Shown: in pieces, positions 13,077-32,273 of the stretch
How positions within the stretch are numbered: the stretch's first letter is position 1
Layout of the letters: each line of letters opens with the position of its first letter
Assembly (NCBI GenBank): GCA_963664825.1
Contig: OY761614.1
Span: 800,001-864,000 of the forward strand
Source: an uncultured Holophaga sp.
Lineage (GTDB): Bacteria; Acidobacteriota; Holophagae; Holophagales; Holophagaceae
DNA length: 64,000 nucleotides
Reading direction: 5' to 3'
Made by a program: the position numbers and the translations under genes
The notes under the pieces: model-generated
What the model was told of the DNA's origin: nothing
Database searches by the model: none
The model's input: only the letters and a program-made list of their open reading frames with translations

Positions 13077-13219
13077 CTCGAAACGCATTTTTTCGCAAGC
13101 CCCCGAAGGGAGCCGCTCTGCTCATTCCATCGGCCTCCTGGCCCATGCTTCTAAGAAGCATCCCATTGGGCTAATCTGGAGGGAGGCATCGTAAATCGAT
13201 GCACCATGGAGTCGAACGC

Positions 13220-15109
13220 ATGCGCCTTCCGATCCGAGCCCTCGGCCTGAGTTCCATCGCCCTCCTGATCTCCGTCGCCGCCCGCGCCGACGAAGGCATG
13301 TGGACCTTCGACAACCTGCCCATGAAGCAGATGAAGGCGAAGTTCAACTTCGAGCCCAGCCAGGCGTGGCTGGACCATGTGCGCCTCTCCGCCCTGCGCA
13401 TGTCCGGGGGCAGCGCCTCCTTCGTCAGCGCCGACGGTCTCGTGCTCACCAACCACCATATGGGCCACGGCGCCATCCAGCAGGTCTCCGACAAGGACCA
13501 CGACTACGTGAAGAACGGCTTCGTGGCCAAGACCCGGGAGGAGGAGAAGAAGGTCCCGGGCCTGTCCATGTTCACCCTGATGGAGATGGAGAACGTCACC
13601 GCCCAGGTGGACAAGGCCGTGAAGCCCGAGATGGACGAGCAGCAGGCGGCCGCCGCCCGCAAAGAGGCCTTCGATAGGCTCGTGAAGGAGCAGACCGAAC
13701 ATACGAAGCTGGCATGCGAGCCCGTAAGCCTCTACCAGGGGGGCCAGCTCTGGATCTACCGCTACAAGAAGCACGAGGACGTGCGCCTGGTGATGGCCCC
13801 CGAATACGATGTGGCGGCCTTCGGCAAGGACTGGGACAACTTCACCTGGCCTCGCCATGATCTGGACTTCAGCCTCTTCCGCATCTACGAAAACGGCAAG
13901 CCGTACAAGCCCGCACACTTCCTCAAATTGGCCCAGCAGGGCGCCGCGTACGGCGACATGACCTTCACCGTGGGCCATCCCGGCCGCACCAGCCGCCTGA
14001 TGACCCTGGCCCAGATGGAGGCCGACCGGAATGCCTTCGGTCCCCTGCGCATCAAGACCCTGGATCGCGCCCGCAGGGGGCTTCATGCCTACGCCGCCCA
14101 GGGCGAGGAAGAAGCCCGCCAGGTCTCGGCCCAGATCATGGGCACGGAAAACGCTTACAAGGTGACCGTGGGTGACACTGCGGGGCTCCAGGACAAGGCC
14201 GCCATGGCCCGCGTCGCGGCCGCCGAGAAGGAACTGCGGGAGAAGGTGGCCGCCGATCCCACCGTCAAGGCCCTGGCCGGGGATAGCTGGACCAAGATCG
14301 AGGAGGCCCTGCAGGTCACCACCTCCCTGACCAAGGAGATGACCGCCATCGGCCAGCTGAGCCGGGCCGCTTCCACCCTCAAGCGCGCCGGGGACAAGCC
14401 CCTGCCCCCTTCGGCCCGCGTCTCCCTTCTGGTCTCCATCCAAGGCATCCGTGAGGATCTGGGCGCCGAGCATCCCCTGGTGAAGGCCCTCTTCCAGGAC
14501 AAGACCGACGAAGCCGTGCTGAACACCCTGAAGGGCGGCCTGCCTGAGGACTTCCAGAAGGCCGCCAAGGAGCTGACCCAGCGCCATCAGGCCGCCCAGG
14601 CGATCATCTCCGAACACCAGGTGCGCATCGCCAAGGCCCGTTTCGCGGTCTATGGCGCCTCCACCTACCCCGACGCCACGGGCACCCTGCGTCTCAGTTA
14701 TGGAACCATCGAGACCTACCCCATGGTGGGCACCCTGGCCCAGCCCTTCACCACCTTCGCCGGACTCTTCGACCGCGCCAGCGCCTGGGGTCCCAAGGCC
14801 GAGGAGGGCTCCTGGGCCCTGCCCTCCCGGTGGCTGCAGCGCCGGGACAAGCTGGACCTGACGACGCCCTACAACTACATCACCACCAATGACATCACCG
14901 GCGGCAACTCCGGCAGCCCCATCGTGGACCGCCAGGGCGAAGTCATCGGCCTGGCCTTCGATGGCAACATCGAGAGCCTGCCCGGCCGCTACTACTTCGA
15001 TGGCCGCGCCAACCGCACCCTCTCCGTGGATACCCGAGCCATCGTGGAAGCCCTCGGGAAGGTCTTCGACGCGCCCCACTTGGTGAAAGAGCTCAGGGGT
15101 CAGAAGTAG
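13220..15109 (+). CDS. S46-family dipeptidyl peptidase (paralog 1)
   Basis: Signal peptide, DEGMW, TNHH, DFSLFR, TGGNSGSP, FDGN. Confidence 0.92.
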   Translation: MRLPIRALGLSSIALLISVAARADEGMWTFDNLPMKQMKAKFNFEPSQAWLDHVRLSALRMSGGSASFVSADGLVLTNHHMGHGAIQQVSDKDHDYVKNGFVAKTREEEKKVPGLSMFTLMEMENVTAQVDKAVKPEMDEQQAAAARKEAFDRLVKEQTEHTKLACEPVSLYQGGQLWIYRYKKHEDVRLVMAPEYDVAAFGKDWDNFTWPRHDLDFSLFRIYENGKPYKPAHFLKLAQQGAAYGDMTFTVGHPGRTSRLMTLAQMEADRNAFGPLRIKTLDRARRGLHAYAAQGEEEARQVSAQIMGTENAYKVTVGDTAGLQDKAAMARVAAAEKELREKVAADPTVKALAGDSWTKIEEALQVTTSLTKEMTAIGQLSRAASTLKRAGDKPLPPSARVSLLVSIQGIREDLGAEHPLVKALFQDKTDEAVLNTLKGGLPEDFQKAAKELTQRHQAAQAIISEHQVRIAKARFAVYGASTYPDATGTLRLSYGTIETYPMVGTLAQPFTTFAGLFDRASAWGPKAEEGSWALPSRWLQRRDKLDLTTPYNYITTNDITGGNSGSPIVDRQGEVIGLAFDGNIESLPGRYYFDGRANRTLSVDTRAIVEALGKVFDAPHLVKELRGQK

Positions 15110-15126
15110 TTCCCAATTTAGGTAGG

Positions 15127-15161
15127 GAAGGCCGCGGAGAAGCCTCTTTTCCGCGGCCTTC
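15127..15161. terminator. GC-rich hairpin between S46 paralogs 1 and 2
   Basis: GAAGGCCGCGGA/TCCGCGGCCTTC 12-bp stem. Confidence 0.55.
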
Positions 15162-15191
15162 GCGCTCTGCTCAAGGTTTCCCGGAGATCCC

Positions 15192-17246
15192 ATGCGCCGA
15201 TCCGCCCTCATGCTCCTGCTGGCCCTGCCCGTCCTCCGCGGCGAGGAGGGCATGTGGACCTTCGATAATCTGCCCTTGAAACAGTTCAAGGCCGCCTGCG
15301 GCTTCGAGCCCACCCGAGCCTGGCTCGACCATCTGCGGCTCTCCAGCCTGCGCTTCCCCGGCGGCAGCGGCTCCTTCGTGAGTTCCGAAGGCCTCGTGCT
15401 CACCAATCATCATGTGGCGAGAGGCTTCATCCAGCGCCTCTCCACCCGGGAGCGGGATCTCCTCAAGGAGGGCTTCGTGGCGGCCAACCGGGACCAGGAG
15501 CTGAAGGTGCCCGGCCTGGAGCTGATGCAGCTGGTGGATATGCAAGACATCACCCAACGCGTCGCCCAGGCGGTGGGGAAGACCGAAGCCGAGAAACTCC
15601 GCGCCCAGGCCCTGGAAGTGCAGAAGGCCCGGGAGGAACTGCACGGGAAGACCGGCCTCACCGTCGAACCCGTCACCCTCTACCAGGGTGGGGAGACCTG
15701 GCTCTACGTCTACCGCAAGTTCACGGATGTGCGCCTGGTGATGGCGCCGGAGCTCTCCGTGGCGCGCTTCGGGGGCGACTTCGACAACTTCACCTTCCCG
15801 AGGCACCACCTGGACTGCGCCCTGCTGCGCGTCTACGAGAAGGGCCAGCCCTTTCATCCCGCACACCATCTCCAGTGGACCCGGCAGAACCTGAAGCTGG
15901 GGGATCCGGTCTTCGTATCGGGCCACCCCGGCACCACCAGCCGCCTCTGGACCCTGGCCCAGATGCGCCACGCCCGGGACTTCGCGACCCCCTTGCAGAT
16001 CCATTCCATGGAGCGCCGCCGGGCCGTGCTGGAAGCCTTCGCCCATCGCAGCTTCGAGGCTCGGGCCCTGGTGGGCGGCCAGATCTACGGCATCGATAAC
16101 GGCCTGAAGGCCACCAGGGGCTATCTGGCGGGCCTCCGGGACCCTGAAGGCATGAAACAGGTGGAGGAGGCCGAAGCCAAGCTGAAGCAAGCCGTGATGG
16201 CCGATCCGCAGCTGAGGGCCGAGGCCGGTGGGAGCTGGCATAGCCTCGAACAGGCCCTCCAACGGGAGGAAGGCCTGTCTAAAGAAAACCTCCTGATCAA
16301 CGCCCGGGGTTCCGAGCTGTTGGCCGCCGCCCTCAGCCTGGTGCGCGTCCCGTTCGAGCGCGCCAAACCCGAAAAGGATCGCCTCCCCGAATTCTCCGAA
16401 GCGGGCCTGAAGGCCCTCCAGGAGCGCCTGAGCCGACCCCGGCCCATCCCCTTCAATCCGGAGCTGGAGATCCATCTCCTCACCGAGGGTCTCAAGGAGG
16501 CCCAGGAGGTGCTGGGTCCCCAGCATCCCTTCGTGAAGGCCATGCTGGGTGGCCTCCAACCCGAAGCCGCGGCCCGCCAGGCCGTACAAGGCAGTGGCCT
16601 CCAGGATCCCGCGGAAGTGAAGCGCCTCCTGGAGGGCGGCCCGGATCATGGCGACGCGATGCTCCGGCTGGCCCGCCTCCTGGATCCCTTCCAGCGGGAT
16701 CTGCGGAAGCGCAACGAAGAACAGGTGGAGGGCCCCATCCGTGAACACGCCGCCCGCCTGGCCCGGGCCCGCTTCCAGATCTACGGCAAGTCCGCCTACC
16801 CCGATGCCACCTTCACCCTGCGGCTTTCCTACGGAAGGGTGGATAGTTACCCCGCCAACGGCACCATGGTCCAGCCCTTCACCACCGTCGGCGGTCTCCT
16901 GGATCGCTTCGAGGGCTGGGGTGGCACGCGCTTCAACCTCGAGCGGGAGAGCTGGCGCCTGCCGGAACGCTGGCTGGCGCGGCGGGACAAGCTGGACCCG
17001 GCCACCCCTTACAACTTCGCCAGCACCGTCGACATCATCGGCGGCAATTCCGGAAGCCCCATGGTGGACCGTCAGGGCGAACTGGTGGGCCTGGTCTTCG
17101 ATGGCAATATCGAGAGCCTGCCCGGCCGCTACTACTACGACGGCCGCATCAACCGCACCGTCAGCGTGGACGCCCGGGCCATCCTGGAAGTGCTGACGAA
17201 GGTCTATGACGCCCCCCACCTCGTCCGGGAACTCACCGCCCGCTGA
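15192..17246 (+). CDS. S46-family dipeptidyl peptidase (paralog 2)
   Basis: EEGMW, TNHH, DCALLR, IGGNSGSP, FDGN. Confidence 0.92.
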   Translation: MRRSALMLLLALPVLRGEEGMWTFDNLPLKQFKAACGFEPTRAWLDHLRLSSLRFPGGSGSFVSSEGLVLTNHHVARGFIQRLSTRERDLLKEGFVAANRDQELKVPGLELMQLVDMQDITQRVAQAVGKTEAEKLRAQALEVQKAREELHGKTGLTVEPVTLYQGGETWLYVYRKFTDVRLVMAPELSVARFGGDFDNFTFPRHHLDCALLRVYEKGQPFHPAHHLQWTRQNLKLGDPVFVSGHPGTTSRLWTLAQMRHARDFATPLQIHSMERRRAVLEAFAHRSFEARALVGGQIYGIDNGLKATRGYLAGLRDPEGMKQVEEAEAKLKQAVMADPQLRAEAGGSWHSLEQALQREEGLSKENLLINARGSELLAAALSLVRVPFERAKPEKDRLPEFSEAGLKALQERLSRPRPIPFNPELEIHLLTEGLKEAQEVLGPQHPFVKAMLGGLQPEAAARQAVQGSGLQDPAEVKRLLEGGPDHGDAMLRLARLLDPFQRDLRKRNEEQVEGPIREHAARLARARFQIYGKSAYPDATFTLRLSYGRVDSYPANGTMVQPFTTVGGLLDRFEGWGGTRFNLERESWRLPERWLARRDKLDPATPYNFASTVDIIGGNSGSPMVDRQGELVGLVFDGNIESLPGRYYYDGRINRTVSVDARAILEVLTKVYDAPHLVRELTAR

Positions 17247-17259
17247 TCTTGGAGTCTCC

Positions 17260-19347
17260 ATGCGCATTTCCATCCTCGCCGCGACCCTTGTCATGGCCCT
17301 GCCCTCGCTGCGTGCCGACGAAGGCATGTGGACCTTCGATAACGTGCCCGTGAAGCAGATGCAGGCCAAGTACGGCTTCACCCCCAGCGCCCCCTGGCTG
17401 AAGCATCTCCAACTGGCCACACTGCGCTTCCCAGGGGGCACGGGCTCCTTCGTGAGCGCCGAGGGTCTGGTCATTACCAACCATCACGTGGGCCGCAGCT
17501 CCATCGCCCAGGTATCGAGCGCCCAGGCCGATTTCATCAGGAACGGCTTCATGGCCGCCAGCCGCGAACAGGAAATCCGGGTGCCCGGCCTGGAACTCAT
17601 GATGCTGGTCGCCCAGGAGGACGTGACGGCCCGGGTGAACGCCGCGGTGAAGCCCGGCATGAATGAGGCGGAGGCCCTCAAGGCCCGGCGGAATGCCCTC
17701 AGCCGATTCCGGAAATCGGAGGAAGCCAAGAGCGGCCTCACCTGCGAACCGGTCACCCTCTACCAGGGGGGCGAATACTGGATTTACAGCTACAGGAAGT
17801 TCACCGACGTGCGCCTGGTGGCCGCGCCGGAGCTCCAGGTGGCCAGCTTCGGCGGCGATCCCGATAACTACACCTACCCCCGCTGGAACCTGGATTTCAG
17901 CCTCTTCCGCGTCTACGAAAACGGCAAGCCCTACAGGCCCCAAGCCTTCCTGCCCTTCACCCACACCCCCCTGAAGGCCGGAGATATCACGCTCATCTCC
18001 GGCCACCCGGGCACCACCTTCCGTCAACAGACGCTGGCCCAGATGATCTACGCCCGGGATCTGGGCATCCCGTACCGCCTGAAGTCCCTGGATCACCAGA
18101 AGCGCGCCCTCCAGGCCTTCGCGGCCACCGGCAGCGAGGCCAACCGCATCGCCTCCGATGCCATCTATGGCATCGAGAACGGCTACAAGCGGCTCTCGGG
18201 CCAGCTCCTGGGCCTTCAGAAAATTGAGAACCTCCGCAGGGTCGAAGAGGCCGAAAAGAACCTGAAGGCCGCCGTCTCCCGGGACCCCCAGCTCCAAGCA
18301 AGAGTGGGCCAGAGCTGGGCCACCATCGAAGGGGCCGTGAAGCGCCAGGAGGCCCTCCTCAAGGAATCCAGCCTCATCGATGCCCGGGGATCGGTCCTGC
18401 TGGGCCAGGCCCTCACGCTGGTGCGGATCTTCGAAGAAGGGGCCAAGCCCTCAGAAAAGCGCCTGGCGGAATTCAGCGAGGGCAGCCTCAAGGCCACCCG
18501 GGATCGCCTGCTGAACCCGCGCCCAACGCCCAAGGCGCTGGACGAGGCCCGCCTGGGGGCGGGTCTGCGGGAGGCTCAGGAGGAACTGGGCGCGGAGCAT
18601 CCCTTCGTGAAGGCCATGCTGGGGGGCCGCAGCCCAGAGGCGGTGGCCAAGACCGTCATCGAAGGCACCCAGATCCACGAGGTGGCCTTCCGCCAACGGC
18701 TCCTGGAGGGCGGCAAGACCGCCGTGGAGGCCAGCCAGGATCCCCTGATTCGCCTGGCTCGCATCCTGGAGCCCTTCCACCGGGCCATTCGTCGGCACGT
18801 GGAAGAAGAGATCACAGGCATCTTCAACGAGCATGGCAGCCGCATCGCAGAAGCCCGCTTCAAGATCCAGGGCAAGGAATGCTATCCCGACGCCACCTTC
18901 ACCCTGCGCCTCAGCTTCGGCCCCGTGGCCACCTACGCCACCGGCAGCGGCACCAAGGCCCAGCCCTTCACCACCTTCCTGGGCCTCTACGACCGCAACC
19001 TGGGCTGGGGAGGCAATGCCGCGGCGGCCGAAGACGGTGCCTGGACTCTGCCTCAGCGGTGGCTGGACCGCGAAGGCCGCCTGGATCTCGCCCTGCCCTT
19101 CAACTTCATCTACAACTGCGACACCGTGGGGGGCAACTCCGGCAGCCCGGTGGTGAACGCCCAAGGCGAATTCGTCGGCATCAACTTCGATAGCGTCTTC
19201 GAAGGCCAGGGCGGCTACTACGTCTACGACGCCGATACCAAGCGGGCCGTGGCGGTAGACGCCCGCGCCATCCTGGAGAGCCTCCGCAAGATCATGGACG
19301 GCGAGCACCTTGTGAAGGAACTTGGATCCGCCTCGGACGCGAAATAG
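17260..19347 (+). CDS. S46-family dipeptidyl peptidase (paralog 3)
   Basis: DEGMW, TNHH, DFSLFR, VGGNSGSP, variant FDSV; GGAG RBS before ATG 17260. Confidence 0.92.
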   Translation: MRISILAATLVMALPSLRADEGMWTFDNVPVKQMQAKYGFTPSAPWLKHLQLATLRFPGGTGSFVSAEGLVITNHHVGRSSIAQVSSAQADFIRNGFMAASREQEIRVPGLELMMLVAQEDVTARVNAAVKPGMNEAEALKARRNALSRFRKSEEAKSGLTCEPVTLYQGGEYWIYSYRKFTDVRLVAAPELQVASFGGDPDNYTYPRWNLDFSLFRVYENGKPYRPQAFLPFTHTPLKAGDITLISGHPGTTFRQQTLAQMIYARDLGIPYRLKSLDHQKRALQAFAATGSEANRIASDAIYGIENGYKRLSGQLLGLQKIENLRRVEEAEKNLKAAVSRDPQLQARVGQSWATIEGAVKRQEALLKESSLIDARGSVLLGQALTLVRIFEEGAKPSEKRLAEFSEGSLKATRDRLLNPRPTPKALDEARLGAGLREAQEELGAEHPFVKAMLGGRSPEAVAKTVIEGTQIHEVAFRQRLLEGGKTAVEASQDPLIRLARILEPFHRAIRRHVEEEITGIFNEHGSRIAEARFKIQGKECYPDATFTLRLSFGPVATYATGSGTKAQPFTTFLGLYDRNLGWGGNAAAAEDGAWTLPQRWLDREGRLDLALPFNFIYNCDTVGGNSGSPVVNAQGEFVGINFDSVFEGQGGYYVYDADTKRAVAVDARAILESLRKIMDGEHLVKELGSASDAK

Positions 19348-19381: not shown

Positions 19382-19410
19382 TTGACCCTCTTTGAATCTG
19401 CAGGCAGAAT
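19382..19410 (+). promoter_or_regulatory. Sigma70-like promoter for tRNA-Lys/tRNA-Glu
   Basis: TTGACC-17 nt-CAGAAT, 24 nt before tRNA-Lys. Confidence 0.5.
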
Positions 19411-19434
19411 ATCCTTTCGTGCCGTCCACGGCAT

Positions 19435-19510
19435 GGGCCCATAGCTCAGTCGGTAGAGCAGCGGCCTTTTAAGCCGTTGGTCGCGCGTTCAAGTCGCGCT
19501 GGGCCCACCA
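19435..19510 (+). tRNA. tRNA-Lys(UUU)
   Basis: Cloverleaf: GGGCCCA/TGGGCCC acceptor, anticodon loop CTTTTAA, GTTCAAG T-loop, encoded CCA. Confidence 0.97.
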
Positions 19511-19522
19511 GATCCTCCCCAT

Positions 19523-19597
19523 GGGGCTATCGTCTAGGGGTCAGGACACCGCCCTTTCACGGCGGTAACACGGGTTCAAATCCCGTTAGCCCTACCA
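19523..19597 (+). tRNA. tRNA-Glu(UUC)
   Basis: GGGGCTA/TAGCCCT acceptor, CCGCC-CTTTCAC-GGCGG anticodon arm, GGTTCAAATCC, CCA. Confidence 0.97.
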
Positions 19598-19612
19598 GTA
19601 AACAAAGCACTT

Positions 19613-19635
19613 AGGCCCGGGAAACCGGGCCTTTT
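19613..19635 (+). terminator. Intrinsic terminator after tRNA pair
   Basis: AGGCCCGG-GAAA-CCGGGCCT followed by T run. Confidence 0.8.
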
Positions 19636-19715
19636 GCCTGCCAAGTCAAAATGGAGTCAAAAACCCCTTCCCGAACCGGGCCGTTCCCTCCCGAACCGGA
19701 ATGCACTCCAAGGCT

Positions 19716-19946
19716 TCACTTTTCCAACATGGTGCGCTGTTCCCTCAAGAGCCGATTCAGCCCCTTCATGAGTTCCCGCCATTCGGCCCGCTTGCCCCCC
19801 TTCCAGGCGTTCCGGGATGCGGCGGCCTTGCCTTCCCCGCTCTTCGGCCCCGTGGATCGTGCCCAGGGCTTCCAGCGCCGAATGGCCTCAGCTTGCTTTG
19901 CTCTTCGTTCGGGTGTCCACCCTGAGTCGCCAACTAGGGCTCGCAT
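19716..19946 (-). CDS. Small basic protein with STGPK-x2-EGK motif (HGGxSTG-like, mobile-element associated)
   Basis: WTPERRAKQAEAIRRWKPWARSTGPKSGEGKAAASRNAWKGG; start uncertain (19946 or 19970). Confidence 0.55.
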   Translation of the reverse strand: MRALVGDSGWTPERRAKQAEAIRRWKPWARSTGPKSGEGKAAASRNAWKGGKRAEWRELMKGLNRLLREQRTMLEK

Positions 19947-20058
19947 AGGGACATCAATCTGTCCTGCCATAGTCACGCTCCTATTTGTCGCGCTAAGCTC
20001 AACTTGCCTGCGCCGCATCAACGAAGCTACCGTGCCGCAAGGCAAGCAGGGAGAAAGC

Positions 20059-20475
20059 GTGCCAACGGATTTCCAGAATGCACATGAACGTCATTGGGAT
20101 GATGCGGAACGACTGTTCCAGGCTCAGCGCTGGGCCAATGCGGACCACCTCTATGGTTTGGCAGCCGAATGTGGGCTAAAGCGACTCATGCAGGCTTTCG
20201 GAATGCAGCTTGATCCAGTGCAGGGTCGGCCCATCTGCGACAGGGACGCCAAGCATGCCGATGCGGTTTGGCGGCGCTTCGAAACCTATCGTGGCAGGCA
20301 TGCCCAGGGCATTGGATACGCTCTACCGACCCAAAACCCGTTTGCCAACTGGAACGCCTCCCAACGCTATTCGCCGCAGGGTGACTTCACCGAGGCCATC
20401 ACCCAAGAACACCAAGACGGTGCCCGTATAGTTTGGGCCCTGGTCAGGAGAGCCGTATGCGAGGGGCTGATATGA
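20059..20475 (+). CDS. HEPN-like protein
   Basis: GTG start after AGGGAG; DAERLF...ADHLYGLAAECGLK helix, central KH and WxxxxRY, as in HEPN (PF05168-type) domains; 138 aa. Confidence 0.65.
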   Translation: MPTDFQNAHERHWDDAERLFQAQRWANADHLYGLAAECGLKRLMQAFGMQLDPVQGRPICDRDAKHADAVWRRFETYRGRHAQGIGYALPTQNPFANWNASQRYSPQGDFTEAITQEHQDGARIVWALVRRAVCEGLI

Positions 20476-21773
20476 CGACCTTCGATCAGATTGAGCCAAT
20501 CGTTCTTGATCTCCTTGAAACAAAACGAGAATGGCTCAAGACCATTCCTTGGTTGCTCGTCAACCGTGATCTAAACGGTAAGGTTCGGTTGATCGCCCCT
20601 GAGGAGATTTCGGATGATCCGGTAGGGCGCCAAGAGTTGGAGGCGATGGCAGTCACCCTCGCCGAGCGCCTGGGGCCACATTCCTATCCAGCCGACAAGG
20701 CTCTGTTGTTTGAACCTGATCGAAGCGTTGTCTGCCAAGGAGCTCCCCATTTCCGCATCGAAGACCACGAAAACGTCTGGGTAGTGGACCGTCTGGCCAC
20801 CGAAGGCGATTGGGCTTGCATTACCCCTGTATCGAGTGGGGCACCGCGCATTGCCTTCTACTCCATCAAAGGAGGGGTCGGACGATCTACCGCCCTTGCC
20901 GTCACGGCTTGGTGGCTGGCGCAGGCAGGCAAGCGCGTGTTGGTTCTGGATCTAGATCTGGAATCTCCGGGCCTCTCATCCTCGTTGCTGCCTCCCGATC
21001 GCCAACCGGCCTACGGCATCGCCGATTGGTTGGTAGAGGATCTGGTGGACAACGCCAATGACTTGCTTCTGGACATGGTTGCCACCAGCGGGCTCTCCCA
21101 CGACGGCGAGATCTTTGTCGTCCCCGCCCATGGGGTTGAGCCTGGTGATTACGTGGCAAAGCTCGGGCGGGTCTGGATGCCCAAGGTTTCCTTCGGGGGA
21201 ATATCCGAGAATTGGTCTAAGCGTCTTCGCCGCTTGATTGACAACTTGGAAACCCGCCTGGCACCAGATGTCATTTTGATCGATTCCCGTGCCGGAATCG
21301 ATGAAGTTGCCTCCAGTTGTGTGACCGATTTGGGGGCGGGTCTTGTGCTCCTGTTTTCCCTCGAAGGCGCCCAAACCTGGACCGGTTATCGCATTCTTTT
21401 CCAACACTGGTTGAAGCGAGGAGTCGCTGAAGAGATTCGAGAACGTCTCCAAATTGTGGGCTCCATGCTGCCAGAAACCGATCAGATCGAGTACCTCGAA
21501 GGCCTTCGGGACCATGCATACGATCTATTCGCGAATGCCCTCTACGATTCTGTCCCAGCCGGTGAGACGTTCGGTGAGCGGTGGCATTTCGAACCCACAG
21601 ATGATTCCGCACCGCACTATCCTTGGGGTGTGAAGTGGCAGCGGGGCCTTGCGGGGCTGCGATCACTTCATGGTCGACTGGCCGTCCTGGAAGTCCCCGA
21701 GGTCCGGAGCATTTTTGGGCCTCTTCTTGACGGCATCACCTGCGCTGTTGGCATGGAGGATCGCAATGCCTGA
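20472..21773 (+). CDS. ParA/MinD-superfamily ATPase with KGGVGR variant Walker A and unknown N-terminal domain
   Basis: FYSIKGGVGRST, RVLVLDLDLESPGL, DVILIDSRAG; ATGA overlap with the HEPN-like gene. Confidence 0.85.
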   Translation: MTTFDQIEPIVLDLLETKREWLKTIPWLLVNRDLNGKVRLIAPEEISDDPVGRQELEAMAVTLAERLGPHSYPADKALLFEPDRSVVCQGAPHFRIEDHENVWVVDRLATEGDWACITPVSSGAPRIAFYSIKGGVGRSTALAVTAWWLAQAGKRVLVLDLDLESPGLSSSLLPPDRQPAYGIADWLVEDLVDNANDLLLDMVATSGLSHDGEIFVVPAHGVEPGDYVAKLGRVWMPKVSFGGISENWSKRLRRLIDNLETRLAPDVILIDSRAGIDEVASSCVTDLGAGLVLLFSLEGAQTWTGYRILFQHWLKRGVAEEIRERLQIVGSMLPETDQIEYLEGLRDHAYDLFANALYDSVPAGETFGERWHFEPTDDSAPHYPWGVKWQRGLAGLRSLHGRLAVLEVPEVRSIFGPLLDGITCAVGMEDRNA

Positions 21774-23157
21774 TCCCGCTACCTTGCGTGACGCCATTCT
21801 CGCGGCTCCTATCGAGACCAGTAACCACAGTGAGCCTCCCCGGCCGGGTACGCTCTACATCCCCTTGTCCCATCTCAAAGCACTGCGGCTCGATGCCCAC
21901 GTTGTAGTGGGGGGTCGAGGTGTCGGCAAGTCATTTTGGACCGCAGCCTTGGTGTCGCCGCTGCTTCAGGCGACCCTGGGCACTATAGTGAAGGAACTCG
22001 ATGGGCTCGACATCCGCATCGGCTTTCAGAATGACCAATCGGAGAATTATCCGAATGAGGACGCTTTTGAGAAGCTGCTAAATGTCGGCACCGATCCCTA
22101 CGACATTTGGCGGTCCGTCATGCTTCGATGGGTAGCCGAGCGAAATGGATTGTCCCTGCCCAAGGAGACATGGGAGGAAACCGTAGGCTGGCTAAAAATG
22201 AAGCCAGAAGAAGCCGTGCGTGTAATGCGGGCGCCTCGGGACTGGCGCGGGTTGATTGTGTTTGATGCCCTAGACCGCACCAGTAACGACTGGCAGCGGA
22301 TGGACGCCATTGTGCGTGGCCTGCTGCGGGCCATCCTCTGGTTAAAAGCCGAACAAGGCCTGCACACCAAGGTGTTCTTGCGCGAGGACCAAGCCGAGCG
22401 AACGGTCTTCAATTTTCCGGATGCTTCCAAGCTCTTGGCGACCAAGGCGGAACTCACCTGGGCCCGACACGATCTCCATGGCCTACTCTGGCAGCGCTTA
22501 ATCAATGCCCCCGAGGCTCACGGTGAACGGATCCGTGAGATCTGCCCAGCGAGCATGAATGCTGGCTTGTGGCACCTCCCGGAACCCATGAAACGAGAAT
22601 CCGAGGCACAGCGCCAAGCATTCGAATATCTCGCGGGCCCTTGGATGGGAAGGGACAAACGCCGCGGTGTGCCCTATACATGGGCAGTAGGCCATCTCGC
22701 TGATGGTCGCTCCCAGACCTCCCCGCGCTCTTTTCTAGCAGCCATTGCACAGGCAGCCGAAGATTCGCGAGAGCGTTATCCGAACCACGATTACGCACTG
22801 CACTTCGAAAGCCTGAAGCGGGGCATCCAGAGTGCTTCGGAAATCCGAGTCCATGAGGTAGTTGAGGACTACCCCTGGGTCAGCGATGTCCTGGGCGTGC
22901 TCAAGGGGATGAATGTTCCGATCGGGTTCGAGGAAATTCGAGCTAAATGGGCGGAATTCTTCCCGAATGGTCCGCAAGATCTCCTGACCAACCGCCTGCC
23001 TGCACAGCATGCCATGCGAAGCTGGGAGGGCATTTGTGACGACCTGCAGCGATTAGGACTCCTCGAATCCAAAAAGGATGGCCGAATAGATATGCCGGAT
23101 TTGTACCGCGTGGGGTTTAGCTTGGGGCGTAAAGGTGGGGTCGCTCCCAAGGGGTGA
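21766..23157 (+). CDS. STAND-like P-loop NTPase (Sll1717-like) with probable C-terminal winged helix
   Basis: VVVGGRGVGKS Walker A, LIVFDALD Walker B, VFLRED, TSPRSF; GGAGG RBS; 8-nt overlap with upstream gene. Confidence 0.78.
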   Translation: MPDPATLRDAILAAPIETSNHSEPPRPGTLYIPLSHLKALRLDAHVVVGGRGVGKSFWTAALVSPLLQATLGTIVKELDGLDIRIGFQNDQSENYPNEDAFEKLLNVGTDPYDIWRSVMLRWVAERNGLSLPKETWEETVGWLKMKPEEAVRVMRAPRDWRGLIVFDALDRTSNDWQRMDAIVRGLLRAILWLKAEQGLHTKVFLREDQAERTVFNFPDASKLLATKAELTWARHDLHGLLWQRLINAPEAHGERIREICPASMNAGLWHLPEPMKRESEAQRQAFEYLAGPWMGRDKRRGVPYTWAVGHLADGRSQTSPRSFLAAIAQAAEDSRERYPNHDYALHFESLKRGIQSASEIRVHEVVEDYPWVSDVLGVLKGMNVPIGFEEIRAKWAEFFPNGPQDLLTNRLPAQHAMRSWEGICDDLQRLGLLESKKDGRIDMPDLYRVGFSLGRKGGVAPKG

Positions 23158-23497
23158 GGACCGTATCCGTCTCAAGTTTACGGATCAGGTACTCGTCTAA
23201 CCCTAAATCCGCCTCCTGGAAGTGCGTCGCAGGGCATGCTCCGGCATGGCCGCATGTAACCCGACTCCATAGCTACACCACCCCAGCCATTTCCGGCGAG
23301 GCATCCTGGAACCAGGAAACACCCTGCCCGGTTAGGACCAAAGCAAGTGATGGCGAAGGTTTCCGCAGAAAAATGTTGTGACCAGTTGTGTCAGAAACCA
23401 CGAGAAATGGTAGAATTTAGGCTAACCTGCGGGTCTCGTTTTGATCTTCGGATAGATAGCGGAAACCCCCTAAACTTTGCAGCCTAAGGGGTTTGTC

Positions 23498-23574
23498 TGG
23501 TGCAGCCGACTGGAATCGAACCAGCGACCTTTGGCTTCGGAGGCCAACGCTCTATCCAGCTGAGCTACGGCTGC
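23498..23574 (-). tRNA. tRNA-Arg(CCG)
   Basis: Reverse complement GCAGCCGTAGCTCAGCTGGATAGAGCG-TTGGC-CTCCGAA-GCCAA...GGTTCGATTCC...CGGCTGCACCA. Confidence 0.97.
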
Positions 23575-24040
23575 TTCAGGTTCCATCATGCCTTCGAGTG
23601 GCTCCCTCCGCAAGGCGCCCGTGCATGAAGGCCTGGAGTGTGATCCTGTCCTCGGGGCACACTTGGAGGATGCGAACCCCACAAATCCTGATCCCCACCC
23701 TTCTGCTCCCGGTTCTCCTGCAGGCCGCGCCGGAGCGTCTCCAAGCTCCCGATGCGCACTGGAAGACCTTCAAGACAGTCCACTACCGCATCCACTTTCC
23801 GGCCAGTCCGGCTGGGGGCTTCGAACCCTTCGCGCGAGAAATCGCTTCCAAGGTGGAGGGCATCCACGCCCGGGTCACGGAATGGGTGGGCTACGAGGCC
23901 AAGGGTCCCATCGATATCCTGGTGCGGGATCCGGTCATGGACGCCAATGGCATGGCGGTGCCCCTGCTCCAGCGGCCCTTTGTGGAACTCTGGAAGACGC
24001 CCCCTGAGCCCGAATCGGCCATCGGCCACTTCAATAATTG

Positions 24041-25370
24041 GGTTCTTCGCGGATTTGCGTGAAGTAGGTCGGCAGTGGCGGATTTCAGGCATCTTGGGTT
24101 TGTCGAGAACTCGAGATGAAGGAGGCCGCCACTGCCTACCAAAGAGCTTATGTCCCGCTTGGGCGGGTGGAAAGGGCAACGCGTCGGAATCGTGGAGCGC
24201 TTCGAAGCCGGGGTGAAGGGGCCGCGGGCCGAGGTGTGGATCGAGTTGCTTGGGTTCGGCGATCATCCCCGGAAGTGCAGCGGTTGTGGGCATTTCGTGC
24301 GGAGCGTCCACGACTGGTCAGAGCGGGAGATCCGCGACCTTCCGCTGTTCGACGCCGACACAGTCCTAGTGGTGTGGCGGGCTCGAGTAGCCTGCCCCCG
24401 GTGCGGCCCGAAGCTGGAAGCCCTGGACTGGTTGGAGCCCCATGCCCGGATCACGAACCGGCTTGCCGCGAGCGTGGCGCGGCTTTGCAAGGTCATGCCC
24501 ATCAAACAGGTCGCGGAGCACTATGACCTGCACTGGGGCACGGTGAAGGCGATCGACAAGGCTTACCTGGACCGAGAACTTGGGCCCGTGAAGCTGAGCA
24601 AGGCGAGGCTTCTTCTGATGGACGAATTCGCCATCCACAAGGGACAGAGCTATGCCACGGTCATCACGGATGCGGAAACGCGTCGCGTGCTCTGGGTCGG
24701 GAAAGGGCGTGGCCGCGAGGACATCCGCCCGTTCTTCGATCTGATCGGGAAGAAGGGCTGCAAACGGATCCAGGCCGTGGGCATAGACATGTCGGCGGCC
24801 TTCGAAGGCGAAGTCCGGGCGCGCTGTCCCAACGCCGAGATCGTCTACGACCAGTTTCATGTCGTGGCAAAGTACGGCCATGACGTCATCGACCGGATCC
24901 GGGTGGATGAGGCCAATCGATACCGGCACGACAAGGCCTCGCGGGAGCTCGTCAAGGGCGCGAAGTGGCTCCTGCTGGGCAATTGGGAGAACCTGCCGAA
25001 TCGGGATGCCAAAGTCCGCCTCAACGAGTTATTGGACGCGAACCAGCCTCTGATGACCGCCTACGTGCTGAAAGACGCCCTGAAGGCACTGTGGCGCTAC
25101 ACGCGGGAGGGCTGGGCTCTGAAGGCCTGGGAGAACTGGATGGAACTCGCCACCTCAAGTGGACTCCAGCCCCTCGTGAAGTTCGCCAAGAATCTCGCCC
25201 AGCGGATCGACGGAATCCTCTCCCATTGCCGCTGGCCGCTCAATACCAGCGTCCAGGAAGGGATCAACAACAAGATCAAAGTCCTCAAGCGCATCGCCTA
25301 CGGCTACCGGGATGAGGGCTACTTCTTCCTTAAGATCCGTGCGGCCTTCCCCGGAAAAACGTGAAGAACC
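24041..25370 (+). mobile_element. ISL3-family insertion sequence (1330 bp)
   Basis: Terminal IRs GGTTCTTCGCG / CGTGAAGAACC; 8-bp target duplication AATAATTG at 24033-24040 and 25371-25378. Confidence 0.95.
24150..25364 (+). CDS. ISL3-family transposase
   Basis: CSGC/CPRC zinc finger; MDEF, IDMS, YDQFHV, EGINNKIKVLKRIAYGYR motifs. Confidence 0.95.
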   Translation: MSRLGGWKGQRVGIVERFEAGVKGPRAEVWIELLGFGDHPRKCSGCGHFVRSVHDWSEREIRDLPLFDADTVLVVWRARVACPRCGPKLEALDWLEPHARITNRLAASVARLCKVMPIKQVAEHYDLHWGTVKAIDKAYLDRELGPVKLSKARLLLMDEFAIHKGQSYATVITDAETRRVLWVGKGRGREDIRPFFDLIGKKGCKRIQAVGIDMSAAFEGEVRARCPNAEIVYDQFHVVAKYGHDVIDRIRVDEANRYRHDKASRELVKGAKWLLLGNWENLPNRDAKVRLNELLDANQPLMTAYVLKDALKALWRYTREGWALKAWENWMELATSSGLQPLVKFAKNLAQRIDGILSHCRWPLNTSVQEGINNKIKVLKRIAYGYRDEGYFFLKIRAAFPGKT

Positions 25371-27609
25371 AATAATTGGGTGGAGCTGCTGGTGGTCCAC
25401 GAGCTGACCCACATCCATCACATGATGCGTCCCCAGAATCATCCCAATCTCTGGGAGAAATGCCTGGACCTCCCCATCGGCCCGGTAGCCCAGAAGGCGC
25501 CGCGCTGGGTGACGGAGGGCTACGCCACGCTCATCGAGGGCCGCATCACCGGTTCGGGCCGCCCCCACAGTGCCTACCGTGCGGCCGTGCTGCGGCAATG
25601 GGCGCTCCAGGGCAAGCTGCCGGACTATGGCGCCCTTTCCGGCATGGGCGGCTTCCGCGGCGGTTCCATGGCCTATCTGGTGGGCAGTGCCTACCTGGAA
25701 TGGCTGGAGCGCCAGAATGCCCAGGAGCCCGATATCCTGAAGAGATTCTGGAAACAGCTCGCCTCCAAGAAACGCCGGGATTTCGATCCCAGCTTCCGGG
25801 CCACCTTCGGGGTCGGTGCCCGGGACGGCTACGACCGCTGGCGGGCAGAGGTGACCCACGATGCCCTCGCCTTGGAAAGTCGGGCCAAGGGCCTGATCCG
25901 CCAGGGGGAACTCTTCGCCCGGATTCCGGGAGAGGTGACCGATCTGGCCGTGAGCCCCGATGGAACGCGGCTCCTGGCGAGGGTGTTGACGAAGTCCAAG
26001 CCGGGCATCCAGGTCTGGGATCTGGTGGTCAAAGCCGAGGAAGGGAAGGCCACTAAGAAGGCTGATAAATCCGATCCCAACGAGGTCCAGGACCGCAAAC
26101 CCGAATTCATCGCTCCCAAGGTCCTGGCGACCCTCGGCAGGCGGAATGGCGCCTTGCCGCGACATGCCTGGTGGTCCGGGAAGGACCAGATCGGCTTCGA
26201 GCTGCGCACCGCCAACACCGAAGGCGTGCTGAGGCCCCACTTCTTCGTGGCTGATCTCCAAAGCCACCGAGTCAGGGAGGGTGGCGCCCCCGGGGCGCAA
26301 CCGGATTCAGCCATCACCTGGAAGGAACTGAATGGCACCTGGGACCTAGTGAAGCGGCTGCCCGATGGCCGGGAGCAGCGCCTCACCCGCACCCTTGGCG
26401 CGGCCTGGCAGCCCGCTCCCACCCCCGATGGGAAGGCGGTCTACTACGTCCAGCTCTGCGCCACCGGTTGCGAGGTCCGCAGGCTGGATCTCTCTCTCCC
26501 TCCCCTCCCGGATGTGCCGCTGCCCGTGGATGACAAGGCCCTCGCGATCCGCACGATCCTGCCCGCTGCCGACGAGCCGAGCCTCCTTCCACCCCCAGGA
26601 AAAGCGCCGGAGCCTCAAGATTATTCGGTGTGGGATTCGCACTTCACCGGAAGCCGGGTGGGATATACGGCCCTGCCTTCGGCCAAGGGGCTGCAATACG
26701 GCTGGGGAGGCAACGATCTGCTGGGGCGCCTGAACTGGCATGTGCTGGGCGGTTTCGGCGAGGCGGCGGGGCCCCGGGGCGCCACCCTGGGCCTGGCCTA
26801 CCGAGGCTGGCGTTTCGCGCCGAGTCTGGAGGTATTCTCGAACCTGGAGAAGCCCTCGCGCCAGGCATTCGCACCGGTGTCAGGATTCGATCGGGAGCGT
26901 CGGGGAGCGGAATTGGCTTTCACTTGGCAGCAGCTCGGGGCCTGGCCTTTCACGTTCCGACCGGTACTAGCCTGGGAATCCGTGAAGGCTTGCGATGCGG
27001 GCGCGAAAGAGCTGGGGCGTGGCTTCGGGGGGGCCGAGGGGCGAGCCTCGCTGAACCGTTCCCGGGGCGAAGGATGGGGCCTTGGGATGAGCGTGCGCGC
27101 CCAGGGCGGCGCGGGCCGCACGGAGGGTCAGGCCTGGGATTTGGAGCGGGGGGACCTGAGCCTGCGCCTAGGAACCCCCGTGGGGCGCTTCGTGGCCAGG
27201 GTCTCGGAAGGCCGCGTCAATGGTAATCCCACGGCCCTGGACCGCTTCCATCTGGGAGGCCAAGGTTCCAGCCTGGTGCCCGCGAGCCTGGATTGGAACC
27301 GGGTGGAGCAGGTGGCGCTGCCGGACTACCTCCAGACCGGCGACAGGATGCGGTGTTTCCGAGGGGAATTCGGCGACGGGCTGCGCCTCTATCTGGAACA
27401 CCTGGCCGTGTGGAACCAGGGCCAGGGCCGTCCCGCCTACCAGCGCATCGTAGGCGTGGAACTGCCCATCCACGAGATGCTGCCCACGAGTCTGGCTCAG
27501 CTCCTGCTGGGTCATTTCACCTTCACCCTGGGGATCCATCGCACCCTGGATGGGGTAATGAAGGACCGCACCGTTGGAACCTTGAGCCTAGTGCTGCGAC
27601 CCTGAGGAC

Positions 27610-30271: not shown

Positions 30272-31429
30272 TCATGGCGCGGGTGGCGGCGGTGCGCGGG
30301 AGGTGGGTGCCAGGGGGATCCGCCGAAGCTCGCCTCCGCATGCCGGACAGGTGCGGGCGATCCGCTCCCATTGCTCGAGCTTGGCCCTGGCCCTCTTGGG
30401 CCGACGATAGCTGCCAGCGAAGGCCTTGGCCCGCTCCAGCAGGCCACCTGGACGGACCGACCCGTACAAACCCGCGTGACGGATCTTATGGAAGCCCGGG
30501 GGGAGGACGTGCTGAATCAGTCGACGCAGGAATTCCACGGGGTGGATGGTGGCGGTCCGGCCGTGCTTGGTTCCGAACGTGACTTGCTCGCGGGTGGAGG
30601 CCTGGATGCGGGAGTTGGAGATGCCGACCCGGTGCGTATATCTTCCGAGGTATTCAACGACGTAGGCCGAGCGCCGGAATGGCTTCTTGGCGTAGACGAT
30701 CCAACTCTTCTTCGACAGCGGGGCCATGAGGGCGCCGTAGGCGCCATCCGTGAAGGCAGGGAAGGCGCCCCGAGCACGAAGGAGCCCAAGTTCATGGAGC
30801 ATCTTGGCCCGGAATACGACGCCCATCACGTCCAGCGGGAAAAGGTAGTCCTGCCGGGTATGTGTGAAACCGCTACCGTCCAGCGCCAGCCCCCCGGCCG
30901 TGACCAGCACATGCAGGTGGACATGGAACCCCAGTTCTCGGGTCCCCCCGACAACGCATGCGTTGTCGGAGATCTATGGTCACGTGTGCAGCACCATCGT
31001 CAGACCCAGGGTGGCCTTCAGGCGGGTGCGCCCCAATTCCAGGAGGGTGGCGGCCACGGCCCGAAAGAACGCTCCGTAGACCTCGACGGGGTGCCACGAG
31101 GCCAGGGGGCGCAGTTCCGAGGGGAGCGTGAACACGCCGTGGAAGTGGCCGAGGTCCAGGAGTCGTTCGGCACGGGCCGCGATCCAGCGTTCCTGGGCCA
31201 GGGCCTGACACTTCATGCAGTGCCGGTTTCGGCAGGAATTGTAGGCATTCCGCCGGAAGTCCCCATGCTCACAGACCTCCTCATGGCCACCGAGCTTGGC
31301 GGTGCGACATAGGCCGATGGCGGTGAGCATGCGCCGCTGCTCGCGACTCGGACAGGCCTGGGCCTCCAGTGCGGGGCGATGCTCACGAACAATGTCGGCA
31401 ATGTCGAACTTGGGCCTGGCGTAGGCCAC
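30272..31429 (-). pseudogene. IS91-family rolling-circle transposase interrupted by a 36-bp stop-containing insert
   Basis: Zn-binding CRT...YNSCRNRHCMKCQ, VFTLP, LHT(W)TRELGFHVHLH HUH region, YLGRY; both halves share one frame, with TGA and TAG created by the 30945-30980 insert. Confidence 0.88.
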
Positions 31430-31433
31430 GGCC

Positions 31434-32273
31434 TCAATCCGGCAGATCCTCCAGCGGACTGCGCACGGCCGCGATCTGGCTGGGAGCGACCTGGGTATAG
31501 ATCTGCGTGGACTTGATGCTGCCGTGGCCGAGCACTACCTGGATCTTGCGCAGGTCGGTGCCCGCCTCCAGCAGGTGGGTGGCAAAGGCGTGCCGGAGCA
31601 GATGCGGGTTCACGATCTTGCCGATGCCCGAGGCCGCCGAGGCGCACAGCAGGGCCCTCCGGGCGGTTTCCAGGCAGATGGGTTTGCCCGCCATGGACGT
31701 GAACAGCCAGGGCTTCGCCGGCTGCGCGTGCTTGTAGTAAGCCCGAAGCAGGCCGTAGAGCTTGGTGTCCATGGGCACCATCCGGTCCTTCCCGCCCTTG
31801 CCGTTGCGGACGTGGATCACCTTTTGCATGACGTCGATGTCCCGGGTCTCGAGCAGGCTGGCCTCCCGGATGCGCAAGCCCGTGGCGTAGATCAGGGTAA
31901 AGAACATGCGGTACTTGGCACTGGTAAAGCCGTCCAGGAGGCGGGCGATCTCTGCCTTGACCAGGATCGAGGGCAACGGCGCCTTGGCATGGGGGAGGGT
32001 GATCCAGGCCACCTTCTCCGGTTGCCCCAGGGTGCGAGCGTAGAGGAACTTCAGGGCCGCGTAGTGGAGCCCCAACCGGGAGGGCCCAATGGCCTGCTGC
32101 CGGAGGACGTCCACCCATCGCCGCACGGCCTCCTGGCTGGCCTCGCCAAGGTCATGGCCAAGGAATTCCTCAAACCGCCGCGCAGAGGCGACGTATTGCT
32201 GGATGGTCTTATGGGCGCGGTTCGCCATTTCCAGATCGCCCGAGAATCGGGACAGAGATACACTGACTGCCAT
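31434..32273 (-). CDS. Site-specific tyrosine recombinase/integrase
   Basis: TGLRIRE (R), GKGGKDR (K), HLLRH, LGH, TQIY catalytic residues; AAGGAGG RBS. Confidence 0.93.
   Translation of the reverse strand: MAVSVSLSRFSGDLEMANRAHKTIQQYVASARRFEEFLGHDLGEASQEAVRRWVDVLRQQAIGPSRLGLHYAALKFLYARTLGQPEKVAWITLPHAKAPLPSILVKAEIARLLDGFTSAKYRMFFTLIYATGLRIREASLLETRDIDVMQKVIHVRNGKGGKDRMVPMDTKLYGLLRAYYKHAQPAKPWLFTSMAGKPICLETARRALLCASAASGIGKIVNPHLLRHAFATHLLEAGTDLRKIQVVLGHGSIKSTQIYTQVAPSQIAAVRSPLEDLPD

Follow-up and report, generated by a model that had tools for sequence, protein, structure and literature searches.

Identity of the cassette

A compact and intact cassette of three genes (~3.1 kb) in the DNA stretch analysed here (the window, 64,000 bp of contig OY761614.1 of an uncultured Holophaga sp.) belongs to the phage defence candidate PDC-M28 of the PADLOC catalogue and very likely represents the system recently described under the name HINPO. 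With a probability of about 0.5, we regard operons of this type as gated anti-phage or anti-plasmid toxin systems, in which a HEPN RNase would be released by two ATPases. The three open reading frames (ORFs), called genes 1 to 3 here, are all encoded on the plus strand (Table 1) and overlap by ATGA at 20472-20475 (genes 1 and 2) and by ATGCCTGA at 21766-21773 (genes 2 and 3). This layout had been claimed in an earlier reading of the DNA from its letters alone (the sequence-only reading), and all motifs quoted there (AAECGLK, KH, W98xxxxRY104, KGGVGRST, GGRGVGKS, FDALD and SPR) are present in the translations. Because 642 homologues were found for gene 1 and 2,504 for gene 2, the three genes are real and not chance reading frames. 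The G+C content at third codon positions (GC3) amounts to 0.61–0.64 in the three genes versus 0.86–0.90 in the three S46 peptidase genes upstream and a genome-wide median of 0.80 (1,836 long ORFs, 17% of them below 0.66), confirming that the codons are A/T-richer than those of the host. The cassette is present in a single copy in the source genome and was also seen on one 3,998-bp contig in X3, possibly the source sample; a scan for promoters and terminators yielded signals at chance level.

The assignment to PDC-M28 was judged from the hidden Markov model profiles of PADLOC. Gene 1 matches PDC-M28A (PDLC04558, E = 1e-50) with residues 1–137, while gene 2 matches PDC-M28B (PDLC04559, E = 7.6e-178) and gene 3 PDC-M28C (PDLC04561, E = 4e-193), both over nearly their full lengths. 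The three matches fall on adjacent genes in this order, and nothing was found that separates the cassette of the window from the PADLOC candidate. According to the available passages of Payne et al. (bioRxiv 10.1101/2024.01.29.577857), PDCs are phage defence candidates predicted by their embedding in BREX, DISARM or restriction-modification loci and were left for future study. The term "M28" does not occur in the main text of that preprint, and a full-text literature search for the name "PDC-M28" gave no result.

HINPO stands for HEPN, inactive nucleotidyltransferase (iNTase) fused to ParA, and ORC/CDC6-STAND, and was described by Li, Burroughs and Aravind (bioRxiv 10.64898/2026.10.19.760177, 22 October 2026) in what is, in the passages available, a purely computational study. 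The layout given there consists of a HEPN gene upstream, an iNTase-ParA gene and a gene for an ORC-CDC6/STAND ATPase downstream, the latter sometimes fused. The cassette of the window likewise shows a HEPN gene upstream of a ParA gene, a ParA protein with an extra N-terminal domain, an Arg in the Walker A motif and a PG motif after sensor-1, and a putative ORC-CDC6/STAND-like ATPase downstream, with a fused ParA-ORC form in a relative. PDC-M28 and HINPO therefore appear to be the same system, a link absent from the available passages of the preprint, whose main text mentions neither PADLOC nor PDC. No ParA system is named in the passages of DefensePredictor available to us. The cassette had first been taken for an uncharacterised and unnamed system; "unnamed" no longer holds because it matches PDC-M28 and fits HINPO, so that the operon itself is already catalogued in PADLOC and, as it appears, described as HINPO.

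Gene 1 codes for a predicted HEPN protein

The structure of the gene 1 product was modelled from 129 sequences with a predicted local distance difference test score (pLDDT) of 96.6. Among 48,161 chains, the best structural match was 1ufb (Z 13.1, root-mean-square deviation (rmsd) 2.6, 114 aligned residues), followed by the sacsin HEPN domain 3o10 (Z 12.6), AF0298 2hsb (12.0), 1wol (11.9) and 4nqf (10.6). All five are HEPN-type structures, at Z values (10.6–13.1) of which those around 13 can be common for helical bundles. The seven best rows of a Foldseek search with the same model came from the same HEPN group, at E values above 0.1, and a PDB sequence search with the gene-1 profile gave no meaningful match. 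On the strength of the model, the predicted fold of gene 1 is a HEPN fold of the PF05168/HEPN-T type, in agreement with the sequence-only reading. The label "SAM-dependent methyltransferase" carried by some gene-1 homologues is ruled out by this fold and probably derives from the neighbouring DUF1156 methylase (see below).

Residue conservation was analysed in 109 distant homologues, namely those of 120–160 aa among 150. E37, K41 and H66 are conserved in 98–99% of them and W98, R103 and Y104 in 93–94% (R103 in 93%), and the conserved set as a whole comprises E37xxxK41, H66, W98, R103-Y104 and H118. Of the "KH" motif pointed out earlier, the His (H66) is thus conserved but the Lys is not. The RX4HXY motif of class I HEPN proteins is not present in gene 1, as R103-Y104 is not followed by a His 4–6 residues on. 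For HEPN-T proteins, the available part of PMC3710099 gives a pattern of Ex3K, a retained Arg and an alternative His upstream. Gene 1 shows this pattern, and its conserved residues fit the alternative active site proposed there.

Gene 2 codes for a KGGVGR-type ParA ATPase with an additional domain

The product of gene 2 matches the NCBIfam family NF047398 (KGGVGR-motif AAA ATPase) with 198 bits at a cut-off of 90. It carries the Arg in Walker A (KGGVGRS) together with the motif DLDLESPG, and KGG[VI]GRS is found in 118 of 119 gene-2 homologues, which bears out the earlier description as a ParA with an altered Walker A motif. In the passages seen of 10.64898/2026.10.19.760177, the ConB2 group of ParA proteins is characterised by an Arg replacing the second Lys of Walker A and by a PG motif that follows sensor-1; judged by these motif features, gene 2 would belong to this group. 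Canonical ParABS systems differ from it by a KGGxGK[ST] motif and an adjacent parB gene: gene 2 has the Walker A Arg, and neither a parB gene in the cassette nor a recurrent parB neighbour in the flank clusters was found.

Residues 1–108 of gene 2 form a separate alpha/beta domain in the structure model (Table 1). A structural search with this model retrieved the MNT nucleotidyltransferases 1ylq (Z 4.5, rmsd 3.7 over 83 residues), 1no5 (4.3), 5yep_A (4.3) and 1wot (4.2) in alignments reaching residue 96–104, with unrelated folds scoring equally or higher; in a second structural search, unrelated folds reached Z values of up to 5.5. Foldseek gave no match at E values up to 0.001, an hhalign comparison with six MNT proteins yielded a probability of 0.6%, and an Atlas search with residues 1–122 gave no match. 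The nucleotidyltransferase motif GSx10DxD was not found in the domain; instead, NRDLxGxxR is conserved in its place, the strand pair reading NRDLNG[RK]VR. Because GSx10DxD is absent, AMPylation is not expected of this domain. The available text of the HINPO preprint (10.64898/2026.10.19.760177) regards this domain as an inactive member of the Pol-beta/MNT superfamily. The MNT partner that was first thought to be missing may therefore be the N-terminal domain of gene 2 itself, an assignment resting on the preprint: no MNT with a GSX10DXD motif, as in class I or II of the type VII toxin-antitoxin systems, adjoins gene 1, but the broader claim that no MNT is adjacent has become doubtful.

Gene 3 codes for a putative ORC/STAND-like NTPase

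Gene 3 gave only NTPase matches over its 463 aa and carries no attached effector or repeat domain. In 47 gene-3 sequences, G49, R51, G52, G54 and K55 of the Walker A motif, D167, R206 and P320-R321 are invariant. The family NF047389 (Sll1717-family P-loop ATPase) matches below its cut-off (57 of 75 bits, E = 1.9e-15), Pfam searches with the 47 homologues returned AAA_16 for 19, NACHT for 6 and ORC-CDC6-like for 2 of them, and the Atlas neighbours are clusters of ORC-CDC6-like, Sll1717 and nSTAND1 proteins. These matches, although below the cut-offs, support the proposed STAND-like nature of gene 3 in the form of a putative STAND/ORC-like protein.

Conservation and genomic context

We examined 86 loci, consisting of the best 80 of 318 metagenome matches, four viral and two genomic loci. 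The set is redundant (85 of the 86 loci form 71 clusters at 95% identity), and a single-sequence scan of genome contigs yielded one locus. Where enough flanking sequence was available, gene 1 lies upstream of gene 2 in 74 of 76 loci and gene 3 downstream of it in 74 of 74, and the order HEPN - ParA - ORC with both partners present is kept in 67 of 68 testable loci. The three genes are therefore co-conserved, as had been proposed. In L048 and L010, gene 2 is not accompanied by gene 1, and L128 codes for a fused ParA-ORC protein of 898 aa. The genome containing this fusion (G028, loci L125-L128) also harbours one intact cassette, one divergent copy and one decayed copy that lacks gene 1. The loci L114-L122 and L124 contain KGGVGR-type ParA genes without the N-terminal domain or gene 3 and represent different ConB2-type systems.

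Flanking families were assigned by applying PADLOC to 131 ORFs, mostly representatives of clusters, out of 296 in the flanks. The gene directly upstream of the cassette codes for a DUF1156 methylase in 15 of 40 clusters and the one directly downstream for a PLD-helicase in 12 of 41. Of 28 de-duplicated loci for which both flanks were available, 10 have the cassette inserted between these two genes of a DUF499 system. Both belong to DUF499-centred BREX-related systems according to the available passages of PMC12839542, in whose main text ParA and MinD were not found. In BREX systems, the cassette was in addition found between PglW and PglX (L065 and a Streptomyces plasmid) or between PglX and PglZ (L103). 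Septu-like genes, HEC-01 and other candidates were each found near the cassette in single loci, and L105 represents a lambdoid prophage context. Because the cassette is nested in DUF499 BREX-related systems and in BREX, a defence role of some kind is highly probable, and the defence context proposed earlier has been substantiated by these insertions.

Gene 2 was detected in 16 of 72,556 plasmid records and gene 1 in 10, with gene 2 adjoining it in all 10. A protein search of 50,697 phage records and a DNA search of E. coli genomes gave no match to the cassette. Full-length gene 2 is present in none of 24 genomes of the same family and in one of 30 in another genome set. Two samples of the phylum contained the cassette in 7 of 401 (~2%) and 20 of 401 (~5%) genomes, decayed copies counted. 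Because of the patchy occurrence of gene 2 and the codon bias, we infer a lateral gain, and the cassette has likely been acquired horizontally.

Partner genes of the HEPN protein

Profile searches with gene 1 in two samples of 401 genomes resulted in 38 matches, 30 of which are followed by gene 2 and 6 by a small partner gene; the remaining 2 are truncated gene fragments that have no partner. In one of the 30 matches followed by gene 2 (L168; L111, G111:C1:515249-516232), a single in-frame deletion joins HEPN residues 2–100 to ParA from residue ~170–183 and has thereby removed both the C-terminus of the HEPN protein, including the RY motif, and the N-terminal domain of gene 2 in its entirety. 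The lack of orphan HEPN genes fits a toxic gene 1. In class I pairs, the MNT protein inhibits the HEPN protein by binding, as stated in the part of PMC11586414 available to us.

A two-gene module was observed in L172, L173, L175-L177, L179-L190 and L212 (e.g. L176:1127-1896, minus strand), in which a PF05168 HEPN gene overlaps an ORF of ~125 aa. This HEPN protein scores above the Pfam cut-off for PF05168 and matches PDC-M28A weakly, while its ~125-aa partner hit no Pfam or PADLOC family. The 6 gene-1 matches with a small partner gene mentioned above are of this kind. The HEPN gene is located directly upstream in all 12 matches to the partner in the 401 genomes, 220 homologues of the partner were found, and the module is possibly an uncatalogued toxin-antitoxin pair. 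Homology between the ~125-aa partner and the gene-2 N-terminal domain was not detected by hhalign (probability 1.5%, score 16.55; two of 40 block-shuffled controls scored higher and a third reached 16.53), and a second profile comparison gave a probability of 0.4%.

Proposed mode of action and alternatives

In the mechanism we consider most plausible, a dimer of the HEPN protein would act as an RNase via the alternative site formed by E37, K41, H66 and R103, and the gene 2 product would silence it by contact, the putatively dead MNT-like N-terminal domain being the most plausible contact partner. The ORC/STAND-like ATPase of gene 3 would sense foreign DNA or a product of the infection and trigger an ATP-dependent change of state in the ParA domain; the HEPN protein thereby freed would cause dormancy or death. 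The gating of a HEPN protein by two NTPases, already suggested in the sequence-only reading, is a predicted model close to the published proposal, as far as the available preprint passages go. The preprint proposes the iNTase as a nucleotide sensor, whereas the present analysis gives more weight to a likely role as a HEPN-binding antitoxin.

Several points weigh against this mechanism. The Rx4-6H motif is absent from gene 1, and class II (PF05168) HEPN proteins were reported to lack the RNase motif and to have been the subject of no biochemical study by then (Yao et al. 2020, available passages of PMC7641770); gene 1 is therefore a putative RNase. The top match to the model of the gene 2 N-terminal domain is an unrelated designed protein (Z 5.6), and a PDB sequence search with the gene-3 profile gave no meaningful match. 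Any three-gene operon could give much of the no-orphan pattern, the counts of defence genes in the flanks are raw values without a matched enrichment control, and no experiment on a system of the PDC-M28/HINPO type was found in the literature searched. Moreover, the HINPO preprint (10.64898/2026.10.19.760177) favours, in its available part, ParA itself as the primary effector.

In this published model, invader DNA is recognised by the ORC/CDC6-like ATPase, which then seeds ParA multimers that coat and block the DNA. The dead nucleotidyltransferase domain would be a sensor of nucleotides, and the HEPN protein would serve only as a backup effector. The strict adjacency of genes 2 and 3 (74/74 testable loci), their fusion in L128 and the occasional lack of gene 1, as in L048, speak for such a mode of action, which we regard as the main rival but as less probable than the mechanism above; the model is purely computational in the passages seen, and gene 1, whose putative catalytic residues are invariant, is retained in 74 of 76 loci, which suits a core component as well as a backup. 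Alternatively, the HEPN protein may be without catalytic activity and serve the two ATPases as a sensor or adaptor that binds RNA or nucleotides, with an output other than RNA cleavage. The absent Rx4-6H motif would agree with this, as would the nearest structures, which include the sacsin HEPN domain and class II HEPN proteins with no RNase activity reported in the passages of PMC7641770. We nevertheless consider it improbable, as E37, K41, H66 and R103 are conserved to the degree given above and fit the alternative site of PMC3710099 (available part), and the operon offers no other effector domain. Families such as ParA and ORC also have housekeeping roles in partitioning and replication. 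A selfish addiction module or a partitioning or replication accessory riding on mobile DNA would agree with the occurrence on plasmids and in prophages, but is very improbable in view of the precise insertions inside BREX-type operons, the lack of a match in the 50,697 phage records and the lack of parB both within the cassette and among its conserved neighbours.

The RNase mechanism can be extended to a more specific and still speculative scheme, in which a toxin-antitoxin pair has been rebuilt as an infection-gated switch: a class II HEPN protein without Rx4-6H would be a genuine RNase that a dead MNT-like domain restrains, an ORC/STAND sensor would act on a coupled ParA switch to set the RNase free, and the two-gene modules would be unfused relatives. 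We regard this scheme as doubtful at present; if true, it would provide the first activity for class II HEPN proteins and a form of MNT antitoxin acting by binding only.

Comparison with known defence systems

The HEPN-MNT systems of type VII, class II (PF05168), share with the cassette the HEPN fold, an RY motif with a conserved Tyr and the position of the HEPN protein beside a possible MNT-like domain. They differ in that the partner in the window lacks GSX10DXD, is fused to ParA and is followed by a second ATPase. AbiV, an abortive infection HEPN RNase with an R91/H97 motif (10.1101/2024.05.05.592566, available passages), shows a weak likeness to gene 1, as PF18728 was recorded in 16 of 129 gene-1 homologues and the structural comparison gave a Z value of 7.1; it differs by its RNA antitoxin, the R91/H97 motif and the lack of ATPases. 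With the NLR-like Avs/STAND ATPases, the cassette shares a STAND-like NTPase as presumed sensor, judged from the passages available. These proteins combine effector, STAND and repeat domains in one polypeptide, whereas gene 3 has neither an N-terminal effector nor C-terminal repeats.

The cassette of the window represents a compact, intact and testable copy (3.1 kb) of a widespread system. The nesting in DUF499 BREX-related and BREX operons and the no-orphan pattern of the HEPN gene do not appear in the available preprint passages. Proof of RNase activity for gene 1 would answer the question whether HEPN proteins without Rx4-6H are active toxins.

Insertion site and neighbouring features

The cassette is located between tRNA genes whose 3' ends face it (Table 1), and it contains no integrase gene of its own. 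The window region 19401-19922 shares 86% identity with an element edge in G008 (contig C94), where excisionase- and primase-like genes follow; a minus-strand ORF of 109 aa without a family match (19716-20045) lies mostly inside this remnant edge. Copies of the tRNA-Glu 3' end are repeated downstream in G007 and G016. In G007, a complete genome of the same genus, the sequences flanking the cassette map 1.5 Mb apart, to 1.41 Mb (left) and 2.91 Mb (right). From the likeness to G008 and the distance of the flanks in G007, we therefore infer that the cassette occupies what remains of a tRNA-Glu element, at the junction of two insertion hotspots. A single integrative element bounded by attachment sites (att) between the tRNA genes was rejected, as no duplicated tRNA end was found around the cassette and the flanks are far apart in G007, which also renders doubtful the earlier notion of one tRNA-bounded island.

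Table 1. Features of the cassette and its insertion site (window coordinates)
Feature	Position	Strand	Remarks
Gene 1, predicted HEPN-domain protein	20059..20475	+	138 aa; GTG start, AGGGAG 5' of start; PDC-M28A; PA-HEPN1 position of HINPO; HEPN-T/PF05168-like
Gene 2, KGGVGR-type ParA/MinD-family ATPase	20472..21773	+	433 aa; PDC-M28B; ConB2 clade features
Gene 2 N-terminal domain	20472..20800	+	~residues 1-108; alpha-beta-beta-alpha-beta; model pLDDT 83
Gene 3, P-loop NTPase, Sll1717/ORC-CDC6/STAND-like group	21766..23157	+	463 aa; PDC-M28C
tRNA-Lys(ttt) + tRNA-Glu(ttc)	19435..19597	+	tRNA-Glu 3' end is integration site in relatives
Remnant edge of tRNA-Glu-integrated, satellite-like element	19598..19922		19401-19922 with 86% identity to G008 C94
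tRNA-Arg(ccg)	23498..23574	-	3' end faces cassette

The 3' ends of tRNA-Glu(ttc) and tRNA-Arg(ccg) hold different inserted elements in relatives (G007 and G016; L156 and L157), and the element at the tRNA-Arg 3' end in G004 is again a different one, carrying repressor and transposase genes. In G016, four further copies of the tRNA-Glu 3' end occur within 17 kb. Upstream, the window contains three tandem genes for S46-like peptidases (13199-19347), the first of which was confirmed by Pfam, and paralogous arrays occur in genomes of the same genus. Downstream, an ISL3 element (24041-25370), flanked by duplicated copies of its 8-bp target (AATAATTG at 24033-24040 and 25371-25378), splits a gene continuing to 27605; the depth of the ISL3 contig in X3 is ~10-fold that of the flank, suggesting that many copies are present. 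Further on (30272-32273) follow ORFs which, judged by their motifs, may code for a tyrosine recombinase and IS91-like transposases. A segment of 71 bp between the cassette and tRNA-Arg (23261-23331) is 87% identical to positions 2145692-2145762 of the genome, ~3 kb from a tRNA-Met gene.

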